From a virus, in IMG/VR virus record IMGVR_UViG_3300045988_125687, positions 1 through 18,241 of that record: 18,241 nucleotides of DNA; one strand, 5' to 3'. The first letter of the stretch is position 1. Each line of letters starts with the position of its first letter. The notes beneath the pieces are model-generated. The model did no database searches. It had not been told where the DNA came from and worked only from the letters and a program-made list of their open reading frames with translations. A program made the position numbers and the translations under genes. This document shows positions 872 through 18,241 of the stretch, in pieces.

Positions 872-1291
872 ATGGCAAAGACACGCACGCTTGGCCCGGG
901 CAGTCTGAAAATCGGCGCGTCGGACAGCGAACAGGACTTCAGCGCGGACGTCATCAACACCGCTTTGGAACCATCCACCGACACCGAGGACGACGACAAC
1001 TTCTTGGACGGGCACACCGAAGGCGGTTTGCAGACCGAGACGTGGGCGCTCACCGGCAGCATCAAAGAGGACTTCAGCATGGATGGCCTCCAGGTCTGGT
1101 GTCTGAAGCACAGCGGCGAGACGCTGCCGTTCGAATGGGTGCCGAACCTTGAGGGCACCATGAAGCTCACCGGCGACGTGACGATCGCGAGCATCCAGTT
1201 CGGCGGCGACGTCAAGACCAAGAACAGCAACGATTTCAGCTTCAACGCATCCAACGTGAAAGCAGTGGCCTACCCAAACCCAAAAGCATGA
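872..1291 (+). CDS. Major tail (tube) protein
   Basis: ATG at 872 follows SD GAAAGGA (857-863); 139 aa. The N-terminal LGPGSLKIG and the later GDVTI...FGGDV pattern are typical of actinophage major tail proteins. It carries a -1 frameshift Ig-like extension, as many tail tube proteins do. Confidence 0.65.
   Translation: MAKTRTLGPGSLKIGASDSEQDFSADVINTALEPSTDTEDDDNFLDGHTEGGLQTETWALTGSIKEDFSMDGLQVWCLKHSGETLPFEWVPNLEGTMKLTGDVTIASIQFGGDVKTKNSNDFSFNASNVKAVAYPNPKA
1279..1285 (+). promoter_or_regulatory. Candidate -1 programmed frameshift heptamer C CCA AAA (major tail gene)
   Basis: Zero-frame reading is aaC CCA AAA gca TGA, a correct X XXY YYZ phase. The -1 frame is open from far upstream through 1431. 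A stem (1291-1298 ACCGTTGC with 1327-1334 GCAACGGT) starts 5 nt downstream. Confidence 0.6.
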
Positions 1292-1431
1292 CCGTTGCCC
1301 CAACATCAATCCGAATGAGGGCCGGTGCAACGGTACCAGTAAACGTGTTCCTACTGCCGGAATCGGCCGACCAGTCCGTGACCGCGACCATCCGTGACAG
1401 TGCCATCGCCGCCGCGCAGGTCACGATATGA
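1288..1431 (+). CDS. Ig-like (Big_2-like, N-terminal half) segment in the -1 frame of the major tail gene; either a frameshift extension or a coupled 47-aa ORF
   Basis: Sequence MTVAPTSIRMRAGATVPVNVFLLPESADQSVTATIRDSAIAAAQVTI resembles the first half of a bacterial Ig-like group 2 domain. ATGA overlaps occur at both ends. The ORF is too short to appear in the track. Confidence 0.55.
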   Translation: MTVAPTSIRMRAGATVPVNVFLLPESADQSVTATIRDSAIAAAQVTI

Positions 1432-1844
1432 CCGGCAACATCGCAGCCGGCGGCAACGCCACCGTGCAGCTCAAGGGCGCCGGCCAACTCGCCAAAAGCC
1501 TGAAAAAGGCCGGCGCCGACATGAAGGATCTACGCGACCTCAACAAGCAGGCCGCGCAGATCGTCGCCCCCGAGGCCAAGACGCTGGCACCGAAGAAGAC
1601 CGGCCGCCTGGCGAAAAGCGTGCGCGCCGGCGCGACCCAGAAAGCCGGTGTCGTGCGCGCCGGCAACAACGGCAAGGTGAAATACGCGGGCGTCATCAAC
1701 TACGGGTGGCCCAAGCACAGCATCAAAGCCACCCTGTTTGCCAACAAGGCCGCGAAGAACACCGAACCGCAGTGGACGCAGGTTTACGCGGACGCGGTGC
1801 AGAAGATTATCAACCGAATCACGACAGGAGATTTATCGAAATGA
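1428..1844 (+). CDS. HK97 gp10-like head-tail joining / tail completion protein
   Basis: 138 aa. The pattern APKKTGRLAKSVRAG...KVKYAGVINYGW...ATLF matches the gp10-family consensus (AP..TG.L..S...YA..v.yG). Confidence 0.7.
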   Translation: MTGNIAAGGNATVQLKGAGQLAKSLKKAGADMKDLRDLNKQAAQIVAPEAKTLAPKKTGRLAKSVRAGATQKAGVVRAGNNGKVKYAGVINYGWPKHSIKATLFANKAAKNTEPQWTQVYADAVQKIINRITTGDLSK

Positions 1845-3945: not shown

Positions 3946-5369
3946 GCACCGCAACCCGCCTTCCCGAAAAATGCCGCGTGTACCTGGACAACACGCTTTT
4001 GCCCGAACGCGCGGACGGCACCGGCCTTCCCGTGCCACTCTCCCCCTTCACCATCGAGTGGGGCGTGAGCGCGCCATGGGACGCTGCCGTGCCCGCCGTG
4101 CTCAAGATCGTGTTCATCGACCCGGACGGCGATTACAGCCGTGTCTACACGACGCTCGCCGGGCACCGTATAACCATCGCGCCGGACTGGACCGAAAACG
4201 GCATCGACAACGGCCCCAACCCGGTGAGATACTGCATGTTCGACGGCATCATAACCGACGTGCAGATACTCGCCGCCGACGCCGGACATGACCGGTTGAG
4301 CATCACCGCGTCGGATCGCGTTTGTGTGCTGCGAAATGACTGCCGCAAGGGCCCCAACTGGAATCAGAACGAGGAAATGGTGCGGGGCTTCCAATGGTGG
4401 CCGAAGGGCAACATCGGCCCGCAATTCAAGGCGTGGCTGGCCAACGACGGCATTAATAACTATTGGTTCCCTTGGAGCACTTTCCTTGCCGGCATCAAGG
4501 CAGACCAGAAATCAAGTCTCCTGGACTGGTTGGAATCATTGAAGACCAGACAGATCAACGGCACATACACCCTTGAGATAAATCGTTCTGTCTTCATGTC
4601 ATACAAGGGTCAGCCGTCCATGGTGCCATCGCTTGAAGCCGTGTATCTCAATTGGGACGTGGAAACCGTCCTTGCCGGCGCGAGAATCATCACCGGCGAC
4701 GACGGTACCGACATCACTCGTGATCATCGTTACGCTGACGCGGAAAACGTGCTGATCGACGAAAACCCGACCCTGACGGCACCGGACAGCTACTACACTC
4801 AGCTCGAACTGCGCTACTCCCATCTCAAACTCGCTTCGTCATCGTCAGGCCAGCTCTACGAGGTCTCCCAGGACGGCAGCCTCGTCAAACAGATTGAAAC
4901 AGCGACGTATGAGGGGGAGAACTGCCTGAGCGTGACAGTCAACTGGGCCGATTCCGGCGCCGCGCAGAACAACATCAACGTCCTGGACACCACGCGCGCC
5001 GAAAACTACCTGAAAACCCAGAATCAGCGCGTCCGACTCCCCCAGATCACCTTCCGTGGCGACCTGTTCTCGCAGATGTTCCTCTACTGCAACCCCCGCG
5101 TCATCACCATAATCGGATCGCGCTTCGAGCGTACCGTGCCGGCCACCCATGGCCCCTGGGCCGTCATCGGCGGCACGCTCACCTACGACGCGACCAACAA
5201 ACGCAGCCGTTGGGCGCACAAGGTCAGACTCTTCCCCGCGCAGGACACCACTAGCCAGGGCAAACCGACCTGCGCGGAACTGAAAAAACTGACGGCAGCC
5301 ACGTTCGGCCAATGCAACTGGAAACTCGGCGCGCTGCGCTACGTCACGAAAATCAAGGAGACCACATGA
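3942..5369 (+). CDS. Minor tail protein (distal tail/Dit-like, extended)
   Basis: ATGA-coupled start at 3942; 475 aa. It lies immediately after the TMP. The N-terminal motif PFTIEWG...VLKIVFIDPDGD resembles actinophage post-TMP tail proteins. Confidence 0.6.
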   Translation: MSTATRLPEKCRVYLDNTLLPERADGTGLPVPLSPFTIEWGVSAPWDAAVPAVLKIVFIDPDGDYSRVYTTLAGHRITIAPDWTENGIDNGPNPVRYCMFDGIITDVQILAADAGHDRLSITASDRVCVLRNDCRKGPNWNQNEEMVRGFQWWPKGNIGPQFKAWLANDGINNYWFPWSTFLAGIKADQKSSLLDWLESLKTRQINGTYTLEINRSVFMSYKGQPSMVPSLEAVYLNWDVETVLAGARIITGDDGTDITRDHRYADAENVLIDENPTLTAPDSYYTQLELRYSHLKLASSSSGQLYEVSQDGSLVKQIETATYEGENCLSVTVNWADSGAAQNNINVLDTTRAENYLKTQNQRVRLPQITFRGDLFSQMFLYCNPRVITIIGSRFERTVPATHGPWAVIGGTLTYDATNKRSRWAHKVRLFPAQDTTSQGKPTCAELKKLTAATFGQCNWKLGALRYVTKIKETT

Positions 5370-5920
5370 CCGTAACCACCACACCCACATTCGGACTCCC
5401 CTACCCGGAAGACAACGAACCCATCGCACACCTACCCGATATCCTCCAACAGCAGGCCGAGGGCATCGAAAAAGCCCTGACACGCTTCGACTTCAACGGC
5501 ACCGACGCCAACCGGTACGCCGCACGCCTCGCCGCCATCGAAAGCATCCTTGCAGGCTACAGTCCGCTGCTCGACGCGCTCGGCACCGTCCGAATCGGCA
5601 AACCGACATACGACCCGGCGAAAATCACCCTCAACGATGCCCTGCTGGTCAGATTCAACAACCTCGTCATCGCATCAATGCGATTCGCCTACAACGCCGG
5701 CGTCATCACCCAGGAAAACGCCTCATACAGCCCGTTCACCGTGCCGCAGGGCTTCGGCAAGGCCGGCTCGACCCGCAACCGAATCAGCATCACCCACAGC
5801 CTGATAGCCCCCGGCGTCGACGACGCGTGCATCTCCGGCCACACGATAACCCAATGGTCGATAACCAATTCCACCAGCAAGTTCTCGCTGATGGGCATCT
5901 GGACCACTGACGACGAATAA
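5366..5920 (+). CDS. Minor tail / tail fibre-like protein (candidate receptor-binding)
   Basis: ATGA-coupled start at 5366 after AAGGAG; 184 aa. The N-terminal FGLPYPEDNEPIA.LPDILQQQAEGIEKAL is a motif I associate with actinophage minor tail/fibre proteins. Confidence 0.5.
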   Translation: MTVTTTPTFGLPYPEDNEPIAHLPDILQQQAEGIEKALTRFDFNGTDANRYAARLAAIESILAGYSPLLDALGTVRIGKPTYDPAKITLNDALLVRFNNLVIASMRFAYNAGVITQENASYSPFTVPQGFGKAGSTRNRISITHSLIAPGVDDACISGHTITQWSITNSTSKFSLMGIWTTDDE

Positions 5921-14509: not shown

Positions 14510-15631
14510 ATGAACAACCTGAGTCTCTGGGATCGTATGAAGCTCGCCGGGCGTATCCTGACCCGCAGTGATGCGGATGATATGCCCGAGGGCATCAGGC
14601 CGCCCAGCCGCGAGCCGGTGTGCGACCCGTTGAGCCTGTCCACCGTGTTTCGTGGAGTCCAGGTGCTGCAGACCGCGATAACCGGTCTGCCGATCCACGA
14701 GATGCGCGGCGGGTTGAAGCTCGACACCGTGAGCTCACTGATCCTCCAACCCGACGTGCACCGAAGCCGCCGCGACTTCCTCGCCGACATGGTGGCCAGC
14801 ATGGTATTGGACGGCAACGCTTTCGTTCGACTCGTGCGATACGCCGGCGAAGTCGTGACCTGCGAGGTGCTGCCGCCCTCGCTCGTGACTGTCTCGGACG
14901 ACGGCAAGGACCCAGCGGCGCCGAAGCTCCGTTACTCGTATCTCGGTGTGGACTACACGGCCGACCAGATCGTGCACTGCAAGTTTTTGAACGTGCCCGG
15001 TCGACTGCGAGGCCTCGGCCCCATCGGCGCGGCACGCGAGGAAGTCGAAAGCGCGCAGCAGGCGCGGGATTACAAGGCCCGCTTCTACACCGATTCCAGC
15101 AACCTCAAGGGCTACCTGTCCTCCGAGGACAAGGTGACGCCCGACATCGCCAGGAACGCGAAAGAGGCATGGAAGGCCACCGGAACCGCAGGCGACATCA
15201 AGGTGCTGGGCAGCAAGCTGAAATACGTGCCGCTGGACATGAAGCCGGCCGACTTGCAGTTTTTGGAAACCCAGAAGTTCGACACCACGCAGATCGCGCG
15301 ACTGTTGGGCATTCCCGCGTCCATCATGCTCGCCGCAGTCGATGGCAGCAATCTCACCTATTCGAACATCGAGCAAAGCTGGATTGAGTTCGCCGACTAC
15401 ACGCTGGCCGCCTACGCGGGCGAGATAGAGGAACTGTTCAACAGACTGCTGCCACGAGGCCGCACCGCCGCGTTCGACTGGGATTCAAGTCGCCGCGCCG
15501 ACATGAGCGACCGTTTCAACGCCTACAAGACCGCCCTCGAATCAGGATGGATGGAAATTAACGAGGTGCGCGCACGCGAGGCCCTGCCCCCGCTCATCAA
15601 CGCGCCGCAACCGGAAGAGGTGAACCAGTGA
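14510..15631 (+). CDS. Portal protein (HK97 family)
   Basis: 373 aa from ATG 14510 (MNNLSLWDRMK...). Size, position and sequence style fit HK97-type portals. The track start at 14291 would overlap TerL by 133 nt and read through the tandem repeat. Confidence 0.8.
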   Translation: MNNLSLWDRMKLAGRILTRSDADDMPEGIRPPSREPVCDPLSLSTVFRGVQVLQTAITGLPIHEMRGGLKLDTVSSLILQPDVHRSRRDFLADMVASMVLDGNAFVRLVRYAGEVVTCEVLPPSLVTVSDDGKDPAAPKLRYSYLGVDYTADQIVHCKFLNVPGRLRGLGPIGAAREEVESAQQARDYKARFYTDSSNLKGYLSSEDKVTPDIARNAKEAWKATGTAGDIKVLGSKLKYVPLDMKPADLQFLETQKFDTTQIARLLGIPASIMLAAVDGSNLTYSNIEQSWIEFADYTLAAYAGEIEELFNRLLPRGRTAAFDWDSSRRADMSDRFNAYKTALESGWMEINEVRAREALPPLINAPQPEEVNQ

Positions 15632-17214
15632 ACCGTCATGAAATCGGATTCAAAGGCATATGCCTACGCGCTGCTGAGGAAGGCGACGGCCGCACATTGG
15701 AAGGCATCGCCGTACCCTTCGGTAGCATCATCGACACCTGGAAGGGAGCCGAGACCTTCGACCCCGACTGCCGTTTCGACGACGTTGACAACGCCAAGCT
15801 CTGCTACCAGCACGGCGAACTCATCGGCCGCATCACGGGAGCGGAAAGTCGTAACGACGGTCTGCACATCACCGCCAGAATCTCGGACACGCAGCGAGGC
15901 CGCGACGTGGTGGCCCTCCTGCGAGACGGCGCTCTCGACTCCCTGTCTGTCGGCTTCATCCCAGTGCAGGACGAAACCGACAAGCAGGGTATAACCCACC
16001 GCAAGCGTGTCCGCCTGCTGGAAACAAGCGTGGTCAGCTGGCCCGCCTATGAGGCGGCGAAAATCACCGGCCAACGCAGCGCCGCCGAAACGAACACCCA
16101 GGAAATCGAAAAACACGATCCATCGAAGGAAAGCGAGGAAACCCGAATGGACAAGGAACTCATGGAGATGCTGGACGGCATCAAGGACGAACAGCGCAGC
16201 CTCAAGGCTGCATTGGCACACGCCGGAAGCCCGGACAAGCCGAAGCCGCTGGGCGCGGAATACCGTACCGCAGGCGACTACCTCCAGTCCCTCTACCGAG
16301 GTGAGGAAGCCGCCGTGAACCTGATGCACGAATGCCGTGACCTCATCGCCACCGGTGACACCGGCAACACCACCACCTGGATCGCGGACGACCTGCGACT
16401 AATTCAGATGCGCCGCAAGGTCACCAACCTGTTGACCCACGACACGCTGCCGGCCAAGGGCATGACCATGGAATACAACGTGGTGGCCACCGACACCACG
16501 ACCACCGGCAAGCAGACTGCCGAAGGTGCCGCGCTGCCGTTCGGCAAGGTCACGTTCGGTACCAAGAGCGTCGGTATCGACACCTACGGCGGCTACACCA
16601 CGCTGTCGCGTCAGGTGATCGAACGCAGCACCACGCCGATGCTGAACACGGCATTGGCCGCGCTTCGCAACAGCTACGCGAAAGCGACCGAAACCGCCGT
16701 GCGCAACTACCTGTATTCCACCATCGCCGTGCAGAGAGACGCGGAAACCGACCCCAACCGCATCGTCGCGCCCGCCGCGCTCACCGCCATGACCATCGAC
16801 CAGTGGGCGGGCCTGATCATGGACGCCGCCGAACTTGCCGACGACCGTAACGTGTCCCTCACCCGATTGGGCGTTTCCAAGGACGTCATGGCCGCGCTCA
16901 TCAAGCTCAAGGACACCGGAAGCCGATTCTTCGACCTGTCCGGCGACGGCTCGGACACCATCGGCGACTTCGACCTCACCGGCATCGCCGGCCGATTCCT
17001 CCGCGTCCCCGTCCAGCTCCTCCCAAGCGCCCCCACCGGCACGGCGTGCTTCATCGACCCCGAAGCGGTAACGGTCTGGGAAAGCGGCGGACCGACGCAG
17101 CTCAGCGACGGCGACCCCACCAAGCTCACCGAAAATTACAGCGTCTACGGCTACCTGGCCGTCGCCGCCACGCAGCCGTTGGGCCTTATCCCCGTCAAGT
17201 TCCCAAAAGCGTGA
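15628..17214 (+). CDS. Prohead protease (HK97/S78-type) fused to an HK97-fold major capsid protein
   Basis: GTGA-coupled start; 528 aa. The first ~150 aa (LEGIAVPFGSIID...LCYQHG...DSLSVGF...LLETSVVSWPAYEAAKI) match the prohead protease pattern. An acidic coiled linker follows, then a capsid-like region of about 330 aa. Confidence 0.8.
   Translation: MNRHEIGFKGICLRAAEEGDGRTLEGIAVPFGSIIDTWKGAETFDPDCRFDDVDNAKLCYQHGELIGRITGAESRNDGLHITARISDTQRGRDVVALLRDGALDSLSVGFIPVQDETDKQGITHRKRVRLLETSVVSWPAYEAAKITGQRSAAETNTQEIEKHDPSKESEETRMDKELMEMLDGIKDEQRSLKAALAHAGSPDKPKPLGAEYRTAGDYLQSLYRGEEAAVNLMHECRDLIATGDTGNTTTWIADDLRLIQMRRKVTNLLTHDTLPAKGMTMEYNVVATDTTTTGKQTAEGAALPFGKVTFGTKSVGIDTYGGYTTLSRQVIERSTTPMLNTALAALRNSYAKATETAVRNYLYSTIAVQRDAETDPNRIVAPAALTAMTIDQWAGLIMDAAELADDRNVSLTRLGVSKDVMAALIKLKDTGSRFFDLSGDGSDTIGDFDLTGIAGRFLRVPVQLLPSAPTGTACFIDPEAVTVWESGGPTQLSDGDPTKLTENYSVYGYLAVAATQPLGLIPVKFPKA
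17202..17208 (+). promoter_or_regulatory. Candidate -1 programmed frameshift heptamer C CCA AAA (capsid gene)
   Basis: Zero-frame reading is ttC CCA AAA gcg TGA. The -1 frame is open from 17046 to 17369. The context CCCAAAAGC(R)TGAC is the same as at the major tail gene. Confidence 0.6.
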
Positions 17215-17369
17215 CGCCCGTCTCGCTCGTCGCCACGCCGGCAAGCTTGATCGTTACCACGGGCGAAACCGCCAGAATCAAAGCCACAATCACGCCAGAC
17301 ACGGCATCACAGACAGTAACCGCCACCACTGCCGGCACCGACCTTATCGACATCGAGGTGAGCCAATGA
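17211..17369 (+). CDS. Ig-like (Big_2-like, N-terminal half) segment in the -1 frame of the capsid gene; either a frameshift extension or a GTGA-coupled 52-aa ORF
   Basis: Sequence TPVSLVATPASLIVTTGETARIKATITPDTASQTVTATTAGTDLIDIEVSQ is paralogous to the tail-gene extension. Confidence 0.55.
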   Translation: MTPVSLVATPASLIVTTGETARIKATITPDTASQTVTATTAGTDLIDIEVSQ

Positions 17370-18229
17370 CCACCATCAGCATCACCGGGAAACAACCGGG
17401 GAAAACCGCCGTGACGATATCCAGCACCGTCAACCCAGCGGTAAAAACCGTCGTGCCGGTCACGGTGCTCTCACGTAACCTGCTCTCCTACGGTCCAGCG
17501 TCGGGCGACGGGCTGACCGCCACCATCAACGGCGACGGCTCGCTGCACATCAAGGGCACGCCGACAAGACAGTGGACTGGCCTGTCGTGGAAGTTCCCAT
17601 GCCCAGTGCATGGCATCGTGACATTCGGCGGCACCACCATCAGTGGTTTGGGCGGCGTCATCAAATGCCTCGACGGTGACGGACGGCAGCTGGGCAGCCA
17701 GATCACCGTGGGCAGCAATGGCGTCGCAATCCCCGATGGCACCGTCAGCCTGCAACTCAACATCCTGGCCACCGAGACCACGCCCACCATGAAGGACGGC
17801 GACATCCGAATCCAACTCGAATCCGGGGACACCGTGCACGAGTGGATGAAACCGGACGACACAAGCCTTGAGGGGGGGGGCTATGAGCTAGCGAACCTTG
17901 TGCCCTCGTTCACCTCCATATTGCCCAAGACCGTGGAGGGCGTCACGTTCACCAGCACGGACGGGCACACCATCCACGCGAAGGGCACGGCGACCGCGTG
18001 GGCGCACGTCGGCGTATCCGTGCGACTGGACGCGGGCACCTACATGCTCACGTGCGACAACAGCAACGGCTGGAATTACGGATGTCAGTTCCTCGGCGGC
18101 AATAACAACGCGCAGCTGGGCGGCGCGTCCGTCAAGCTCGAAGCCGACACCTATACGGTCAGCGTGTTCGTCGCCAAAGGGAAGACCGTGGACATCGACC
18201 TGACCCCGCGCATCCACCGGCTCGACTGA
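17366..18229 (+). CDS. Surface/decoration or adhesin-like protein: Ig-like C-terminal half followed by two tandem jelly-roll/CBM-like domains
   Basis: 287 aa. The N-terminus ISITGKQPGKTAVTISSTVNPAVKTVVPVTVL resembles the second half of a Big_2 domain. An internal duplication follows (GLTATINGDGSLHIKGTPT... versus GVTFTSTDGHTIHAKGTAT...). Confidence 0.6.
   Translation: MTTISITGKQPGKTAVTISSTVNPAVKTVVPVTVLSRNLLSYGPASGDGLTATINGDGSLHIKGTPTRQWTGLSWKFPCPVHGIVTFGGTTISGLGGVIKCLDGDGRQLGSQITVGSNGVAIPDGTVSLQLNILATETTPTMKDGDIRIQLESGDTVHEWMKPDDTSLEGGGYELANLVPSFTSILPKTVEGVTFTSTDGHTIHAKGTATAWAHVGVSVRLDAGTYMLTCDNSNGWNYGCQFLGGNNNAQLGGASVKLEADTYTVSVFVAKGKTVDIDLTPRIHRLD
17872..17880 (+). repeat. G9 homopolymer inside gene 17366..18229
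   Basis: Nine consecutive G bases encode the GGG linker (LEGGGY) between the two repeated domains. Confidence 0.95.
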
Positions 18230-18241
18230 CCCTGACCCCAC
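18123..18241. repeat. Terminal overlap, identical to 1..119
   Basis: Same as the 1..119 entry. Confidence 0.95.

Follow-up and report, generated by a model that had tools for sequence, protein, structure and literature searches.

Does the major tail gene of a small Bifidobacterium phage direct the synthesis of one protein or of two, and if two, what does the longer one carry? The phage is represented here by the window, the whole stretch of 18,241 nucleotides (nt) that was analyzed (IMG/VR virus record IMGVR_UViG_3300045988_125687). Its major tail gene ends with the 0-frame codons AAC (1277–1279), CCA (1280–1282), AAA (1283–1285) and GCA (1286–1288), followed by TGA (1289–1291), and so contains C CCA AAA, a slippery heptamer of the X XXY YYZ type, in phase and one codon before the stop. 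Ribosomes that slipped back there by one base would enter a −1 frame that is open to position 1431 and encodes an unfinished Ig-like domain of the Big_2 family. Comparisons with related and unrelated phages lead us to conclude that the tail site is very probably a functional −1 frameshift site. With less assurance, we lean toward a joint explanation in which frameshifting goes together with docking of the unfinished domain to its missing part, which is carried by another protein of the same phage.

A preliminary description of this DNA, made from its letters, had pointed out the in-phase heptamer, a 14-nt context common to the tail and capsid genes, and the likeness of the arrangement to the head and tail cases of Lactobacillus phage A2. 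All three observations hold. The 14-mer CCCAAAAGCRTGAC is present in exactly two copies in the 18,241 nt, at 1279–1292 and 17202–17215, and only at these two gene ends; shuffled sequences give a chance expectation of 0.03 matches, and none of 200 shuffles reached two. The heptamer by itself is no rarity, having four matches in the window against 1.8 expected. Read directly from the A2 genome, the head gene ends ACC CCA AAA GCG TAA C and the tail gene GCC CCA AAA GCG TAG, a signal (C CCA AAA GCG plus stop, one codon before the end of each gene) to which that of the window corresponds letter for letter. The A2 and window signals have ten bases the same and then a stop, and the in-phase C CCA AAA before the TGA of the window tail gene is identical to both A2 sites. 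The extensions of the A2 head protein (gp5A/5B) and major tail protein have been experimentally established as products of −1 frameshifting (PMC5009743, its references B145 and B146; Garcia et al. 2004 and Rodriguez et al. 2005, as cited there).

The likeness extends to the product, as the A2 head −1 product starts PKSVTP, as does the capsid extension of the window, and is also a Big_2 module. A candidate stem-loop lies downstream in both phages, beginning 9 nt after the heptamer in A2 and 5–6 nt after it in the window. The two phages differ in host phylum, capsid family and tail protein family, and they differ in one further respect: A2 adds a complete Big_2 domain of ~87 amino acids (aa) in one piece, whereas the window extension ends at ~60% of the domain, with the remainder on another protein. 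The tail frameshift, as predicted here, is a further example of the A2 mechanism, and the splitting of the domain is what is new.

We collected 60 related loci with the tail protein as the query. Most relatives lack the extension, and in them the tail stop codon overlaps the start of the next gene, which encodes an HK97 gp10-like protein, directly, as in GCATGACCGGCAA. Three lineages carry the extension, namely the window group, made up of identical or near-identical copies in IMG/VR, ENA and Logan, and prophages of B. reuteri DSM 23975 (loci L014 = L068) and B. saguini DSM 23967 (L016 = L069). In all three the heptamer is invariant and in phase with the stop one codon later, and no relative keeps the small open reading frame (ORF) with the heptamer absent or out of phase. 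The predicted trans-frame product of the window is 186 aa long, and its first extension peptide would be SMTVAPTSIR after ...AYPNPK; that predicted for B. reuteri is SLTVSPTAATLK after ...AYPDPK.

The signal is not confined to this family of tail genes. At the capsid gene the heptamer is invariant in 15 distinct site sequences (14 relatives and the window), as TTC/xCC CCA AAA, the codon after it varies (GCG, GTC, GGC, GGG or GGA), and the −1 "start" is GTG, CTG or ATG. All four junctions around the half domains in the window (1289–1293, 1429–1433, 17212–17216 and 17367–17371) read RTGAC(C), and UGA-C is the weakest termination context in Escherichia coli. In prophages of B. longum the same signal ends an unrelated capsid gene (PF05065) and an unrelated tail tube gene (PF25681), reading GCC CCA AAA GTG TGA C and ATC CCA AAA GGC TGA C; the prophage of B. 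longum GCA_028315545 (L076; positions 2257–2430 and 4541–5879), which is larger and unrelated, has the heptamer-stop signal at both its capsid and its tail tube gene. Altogether the signal stands equally far from the stop in six unrelated host genes, for two of which frameshifting has been proven experimentally. In these genes the heptamer and the bases after it encode both the start of the module (PKS-x-T; PK-S/R) and the end of the protein that receives it (PK-x-stop). With the module's opening residues thus written in the heptamer, the slip site seems, on these sequences, to move together with the Ig module. A review of recoding holds that a slip site arises by chance after an out-of-frame insertion (PMC5009743).

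Translational coupling is the most obvious way to do without a frameshift. The 47-aa ORF at 1288–1431 would then be a small gene, translated from ATG 1288 by termination-reinitiation into a free peptide. In the window group this ATG does overlap the TGA, ATGA overlaps serve genuine coupling elsewhere in the genome (at 1428 and 1841), and gene callers and NCBI annotate separate small ORFs here. However, no Shine-Dalgarno (SD) sequence lies upstream of 1288 in the window, and the overlapping codon is CTG rather than ATG in the B. reuteri and B. saguini prophages, so the ATG is not a conserved start, yet the upstream part of the ORF is still conserved. Among the 51 codons of the B. reuteri ORF no canonical in-frame start comes before codon ~31, some two-thirds in, so that only frameshifting could produce the conserved N-terminal part. 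The heptamer, which lies upstream of the ATG, already encodes the opening residues of the module (PKS), and a free peptide likewise leaves the constant heptamer-to-stop distance in six unrelated genes without explanation. Since the in-phase heptamer is kept where the overlapping start is lost, coupling fails as an explanation, as the preliminary description had suspected, and we regard a separate small gene as improbable.

It is hardly credible that nothing at all is expressed from this frame, either because a homopolymer error in the AAAA run has created the arrangement or because the frame is open by chance. An A5 run would indeed bring the extension into frame, and by an estimate from base frequencies a 50-codon open frame has a likelihood of ~0.2 at this composition. 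Against this, the same A4 run and frame relation are present in independent assemblies from IMG/VR, ENA and Logan and in two RefSeq isolate genomes, which led us to reject sequencing error; the same arrangement is found in phage A2, where the frameshift is experimentally established; and the orthologous extensions score above the Big_2 gathering threshold (below). Transcriptional slippage on the A4 run was also considered and rejected, as the run is too short for it.

Downstream of the heptamer, the perfect 8-bp stem beginning 5 nt after it that had been described earlier is present: 1291–1298 (ACCGTTGC) is the exact reverse complement of 1327–1334 (GCAACGGT), and the pairing lies within the minimum-free-energy fold. 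Perfect stems of at least 8 bp are so placed at 2% of window positions. It is through recurrence and covariation in relatives that this candidate stem gains meaning. In B. reuteri it reads ACCGTCTC/GAGACGGT, which differs from the window stem by two compensatory pair changes, and at independent sites stems of 7–9 bp lie 5–7 nt downstream, with a chance of 2–5% per site. The candidate stem at the capsid site (17215–17221 with 17259–17265) begins 6 nt downstream and is paired in 80% of cells, compared with 32–44% in slid controls. A search of the window against Rfam gave no family.

What, then, would the frameshift add? The 47-aa ORF matches Pfam Big_2 (PF02368) with an E value of 9.6e-4 and 19.5 bits over hidden Markov model (HMM) positions 5–48 of 79, below the gathering score of 22.8 bits. 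The B. reuteri and B. saguini extensions score 25.5 and 29.8 bits, above that threshold, over positions 5–52 of 79 only. The tail extension also matches phrog_215, "structural protein with Ig domain". No complete Ig-like domain was found in the tail −1 frame, where only Big_2 positions 5–48/52 of 79 precede the stop. We call this part of the domain the N-half (N-halves span Big_2 HMM positions ~2–52) and the rest the C-half. A search of the window with an N-half profile found exactly two copies, so that the earlier recognition of a paralogous Big_2-like half domain in the −1 frame is borne out.

The window holds two N-halves and a single C-half. The capsid extension stops in the middle of Big_2, at a turn, and the next ORF, which encodes a 287-aa protein, begins at an overlapping ATG with MTTISITGKQPGKTAVTISSTVNPAVKTVVPVTV, a sequence that aligns without gaps to the second half of the complete Big_2 domain of A2. 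When the tail N-half is joined in a chimera to the N-terminus of the 287-aa protein, the match covers Big_2 positions 4–76 of 79 with 28.1 bits, above the gathering score. The break between the two halves is conserved and reads as a genuine stop and start. The 287-aa ORF has its own SD (GAGGTGA) and ATG, and C-half ORFs always keep an ATG and an SD (GAGGTGA, AAGGAGA or AAAGGAG), the SD being kept though its encoded amino acids change. The frame relation between the halves varies (−1 in the window, +1 in L076, a 12-nt gap in locus L041), and therefore no single recoding rule could fuse them. A second programmed frameshift joining N-half to C-half was rejected as unlikely on these grounds (no slippery sequence, variable frame relation, conserved ATG and SD); at the tail gene, the product of such a shift would be the extension joined to the gp10-like protein. 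We also rejected the N-terminus of the latter (TGNIAAGGNATVQLKG) as the missing half, since it is the same in relatives without the extension.

A search for homologues of the 287-aa protein found 1,523, and all 19 that were aligned begin with a C-half, in three sequence types. Among ~65 related loci that we tabulated, every C-half locus has an N-half, and every N-half locus with the capsid region covered has a C-half. In the L003/L004 group the capsid gene has neither the heptamer nor an N-half, a C-half ORF follows it, and the only N-half is the tail extension, ~1.6 kb from that ORF. (In this group CCC and then the ATG of the C-half ORF come next, in frame, after the capsid TGA, and read-through of that stop would likewise yield a fusion of the two.) L076 and L078 mirror the window, with an orphan N-half on the capsid protein and a tail extension that ends in an N-half with a C-half ORF next to it; the L076 tail extension consists of one extra domain plus the N-half. 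In L041 the N-half stands in frame at the end of a 183-aa protein and two C-half ORFs follow. Locus L077 (1587–1904, 1943–2377 and 2420–3280) has an ORF ending in two tandem N-halves with no C-half between them; two different ORFs come after it, both with a C-half at the start. L030 keeps the C-half as a mini-ORF from which the jelly-roll domains have been deleted, and in L020 and L070 the same frameshift would fuse the capsid protein straight to the jelly-roll domains, with neither half present. In L020 (1464–2262; = L070, B. vansinderenii) the capsid gene ends CCC AAA AGC G TAA, a C9 run follows, and the −1 frame, 266 aa long, continues without interruption into the jelly-roll domains, so that the same display would here be covalent. 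In L015, L017 and L019 (~1340–1370) an indel in the C-half coding region (GGGAAAAACCGGGAAAAACC vs GGGAAACAACCGGGGAAAACC) breaks the frame; this break recurs in contigs from different metagenomes, where it may mark a pseudogene, another slippage site or an assembly error common to them. Taken from sequence, the distribution of the halves suggests that they may dock in trans.

The AlphaFold2 (AF2) model of the 287-aa protein (mean predicted local distance difference test score, pLDDT, 71) has an N-terminal beta-hairpin and two beta-sandwiches with a disordered linker. Foldseek matches of this model are weak and generic, to jelly-rolls of the carbohydrate-binding module (CBM) and collagen-binding kinds (best E value 7e-4, whole-protein TM score < 0.3), so that "carbohydrate-binding" is an inference. 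A run of nine G (17872–17880) lies in the disordered linker between the jelly-roll domains. In relatives the number of G differs and the ORF is then split at the run, into 175–187 aa and ~110 aa, and PHROGs has the two parts as separate families. It may be a site of phase variation or slippage, and recalls the pilus genes of B. breve that are interrupted by G tracts.

Several findings weigh against frameshifting combined with docking, and some of them favor a different account, in which the frameshift is real and the 287-aa protein does not supply the rest of the domain. The half domain might be a recombination relic, illegitimate recombination having copied the capsid mini-ORF between two RTGACC junctions, or it might act alone, as a flexible tag, by pairing between neighboring subunits, or by lowering translation of the downstream gp10-like gene. 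The module does appear to be inserted at an ATGACCG microhomology (relatives read GCATGACCGGCAA, the window GCATGACCG...ATATGACCGGCAA). The tail extension evolves fast: identity to the window is 86% (B. reuteri) and 83% (B. saguini) for the tail protein and only ~48% for the extension, and the extension differs at 21, 16 and 23 first, second and third codon positions, which gives no clear sign of purifying selection. It is also rare, with three lineages found across scans of IMG/VR, JGI metagenomes and GTDB genomes and one search of 5.8 billion proteins. Most of the co-occurrence of the halves is physical linkage, and information comes solely from the L004 group, L041/L077 and L076. The window genome is, by its sequence identities, a mosaic (872–1431 vs 15628–17369): its tail protein and extension match L003/L004 at 99% identity, whereas over the last 150 aa of its capsid protein identity to L003/L004 is only 86% and it is L028/L029 that match at 99%. 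Its tail N-half thus comes from an L004-type phage, whose C-half differs clearly from that of the window, and this particular pair of tail N-half and C-half may therefore be mismatched. A single-sequence AF2 model of the N-half plus C-half chimera reached a pLDDT of 46, too low to inform on the fold. As for the stems, the folding energy at the tail site is ordinary (z = −1.0 to −1.6; −1.0 in the window, so that the stem alone is weak evidence), the minimum-free-energy fold of B. saguini lacks this stem, the Logan variant L075 breaks one of its pairs, and covariation in the capsid stem is not significant, as that stem varies too little.

On the other side, extension lineages that are ~50% diverged have retained the length, the frame and the Big_2 signature residues (P.SADQ.VTA...D..IAAA). 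An orphan N-half is met again, independently, on the capsid protein of unrelated B. longum prophages, and the L004 group keeps its C-half ORF with the tail N-half as the sole possible partner. Moreover, an Ig sandwich reduced to ~60% would not be expected to fold by itself. A relic or a self-sufficient half domain is for these reasons an unlikely account, though a less remote one than the two that dispense with the frameshift.

In frameshifting combined with docking, which we prefer, a minority of ribosomes on the major tail gene would slip back one base at C CCA AAA, tRNA-Pro shifting from CCA to CCC and tRNA-Lys from AAA to AAA, aided by the adjacent stop codon and the stem-loop. The slipped ribosomes would add 48 residues and stop at 1431, giving the longer tail-tube variant. 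N-half and C-half would then assemble in trans into one Big_2 sandwich, the N-half as socket and the C-half as plug, so that frameshifted capsid and tail-tube subunits would be docking sites for the 287-aa protein, a probable glycan- or surface-binding protein, and the frameshift rate would set the number of such sites per virion.

Completion of an incomplete Ig-like sandwich by another polypeptide is well known from donor-strand complementation in chaperone-usher pili and from engineered split Ig-like domains such as SpyTag/SpyCatcher (from CnaB2), and such strand completion gives a very stable noncovalent attachment, or a covalent one for Spy. Pili donate one strand, whereas ~3 strands (~35 aa) are proposed here, and the present case would differ from both in being viral and in having an acceptor made by ribosomal frameshifting. 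Among phages, SPP1 gp17.1/gp17.1* has a frameshifted FN3 extension in a 3:1 ratio and so displays an Ig-like domain outside the tail tube on a recoded subset of subunits, as predicted here, and lambda gpV and T5 pb6 have a C-terminal Big_2 domain outside the siphophage tail tube, as proposed here (PMC8718954). In SPP1, lambda and T5, by contrast, the domains are complete and covalent in the tube protein, in frame in lambda and T5 and behind another type of shift site in SPP1. The capsid 10A/10B proteins of T7, T3 and K1F likewise include a minor extended species made by −1 frameshifting, a subset display such as is predicted here (PMC5009743, PMC13370021), from another slip site and with a complete extension in place of a split domain.

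A more tentative idea, for which we would put the chances a little short of even, is that of a portable recoding-plus-docking cassette in Bifidobacterium phages. Made up of C CCA AAA GNN-stop, a stem and ~60% of Big_2 from its N-terminal side, it could be added to any capsid or tail-tube gene; the frameshift would make sockets of a set fraction of the subunits, and C-half adhesins (CBM-like and switched by poly-G runs) would plug in. A single adhesin could thereby be displayed on head and tail alike, and one adhesin could replace another with the structural genes untouched. Whether the split Big_2 arrangement is a previously undescribed attachment mechanism we judge in the same guarded way. 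A tblastn search of the joined Big_2 domain against phages gave no match, and literature searches brought up nothing specific on a split Ig domain or on frameshifting in Bifidobacterium phages.

The features discussed are collected in Table 1. The window is one small phage genome. A perfect direct repeat of 119 nt at its ends (1–119 = 18123–18241) means that an 18,122-bp genome has been assembled here, either closed into a circle or with terminal redundancy; the 287-aa ORF extends into this repeat. The phage is a small Bifidobacterium phage, with relatives among prophages of B. reuteri, B. saguini, B. vansinderenii and B. biavatii and many human-gut metagenome contigs. No GenBank phage was matched in a megablast search with 8 kb, and a close relative with annotation is thus lacking. 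The gene order is protease-capsid fusion, a 52-aa ORF, the 287-aa ORF and two head-tail connector genes, then the major tail gene, the 47-aa ORF, the gp10-like gene, the tail assembly chaperone gene and the tape measure gene. The tail protein is 36–37% identical to annotated major tail proteins of small Arthrobacter and Gordonia siphophages, and these phages, of 15–16 kb, share the gene order and lack both small ORFs. The G/GT-type slip site that had also been noted is present: T TTT TTG at 2179–2185 lies in phase inside the chaperone gene (1841–2218), the −1 frame after it is open for ~60 codons, to 2364, and the tape measure ATG at 2374 is just beyond. As read from the sequence, this is a classical G/GT arrangement.

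Table 1. Features of the window that bear on the tail-gene frameshift and the split Big_2 domain
Feature	Position	Strand	Basis
Major tail (tube) protein gene, 139 aa, 0 frame, ends ...AYPNPKA*	872..1291	+	phrog_4574 "major tail protein" match, E 1e-27
Slippery heptamer C CCA AAA (X XXY YYZ), 0-frame phase, one codon before stop	1279..1285	+	Sequence reading
Predicted −1 frame extension (N-half), 48 codons + stop, SMTVAPTSIRMRAGATVPVNVFLLPESADQSVTATIRDSAIAAAQVTI*; N-terminal ~60% of Big_2 Ig-like domain	1285..1431	+	Pfam, phrog_215
0-frame stop TGA, then C; ATG 1288–1290 overlaps stop	1289..1291	+	Sequence reading
Candidate stimulatory stem-loop, 8-bp stem 1291–1298 / 1327–1334, 28-nt loop, 5 nt past heptamer	1291..1334	+	Fold and relatives
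HK97 gp10-like tail completion gene, ATG overlapping extension stop (ATGA)	1428..1844	+	Pfam PF04883, E 8e-6; phrog_5
Prohead protease-major capsid fusion gene, ends ...VKFPKA* with same signal as tail	15628..17214	+	Peptidase_S78 and Phage_capsid_4 matches
Second heptamer C CCA AAA, capsid gene end	17202..17208	+	Sequence search
Predicted capsid −1 extension, N-half of Big_2, ends ...DIEVSQ*	17208..17369	+	Pfam Big_2 HMM 2–44/79, E 0.004
287-aa protein: residues 1–~35 C-terminal ~40% of Big_2 (C-half), then two jelly-roll (CBM-like) domains	17366..18229	+	Chimera match, homologues, model

As for annotation, hundreds of Bifidobacterium prophage records at present give these pieces as unrelated hypothetical ORFs of 40–55 aa. 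If the frameshift alone is true, the A2 mechanism, with an identical nucleotide signal, extends to phages of Actinobacteria that are common in the human and primate gut, and the slip site travels with the Ig module, contrary to the chance origin favored in the review quoted above. If docking is true as well, these phages would have a new viral way to attach accessory proteins, a natural Ig-fold fragment complementation with its stoichiometry set by recoding, and the two halves may be a natural tag-and-catcher pair for phage display. Docking would also be relevant to the ways in which glycan- or mucus-binding modules are displayed by gut phages.

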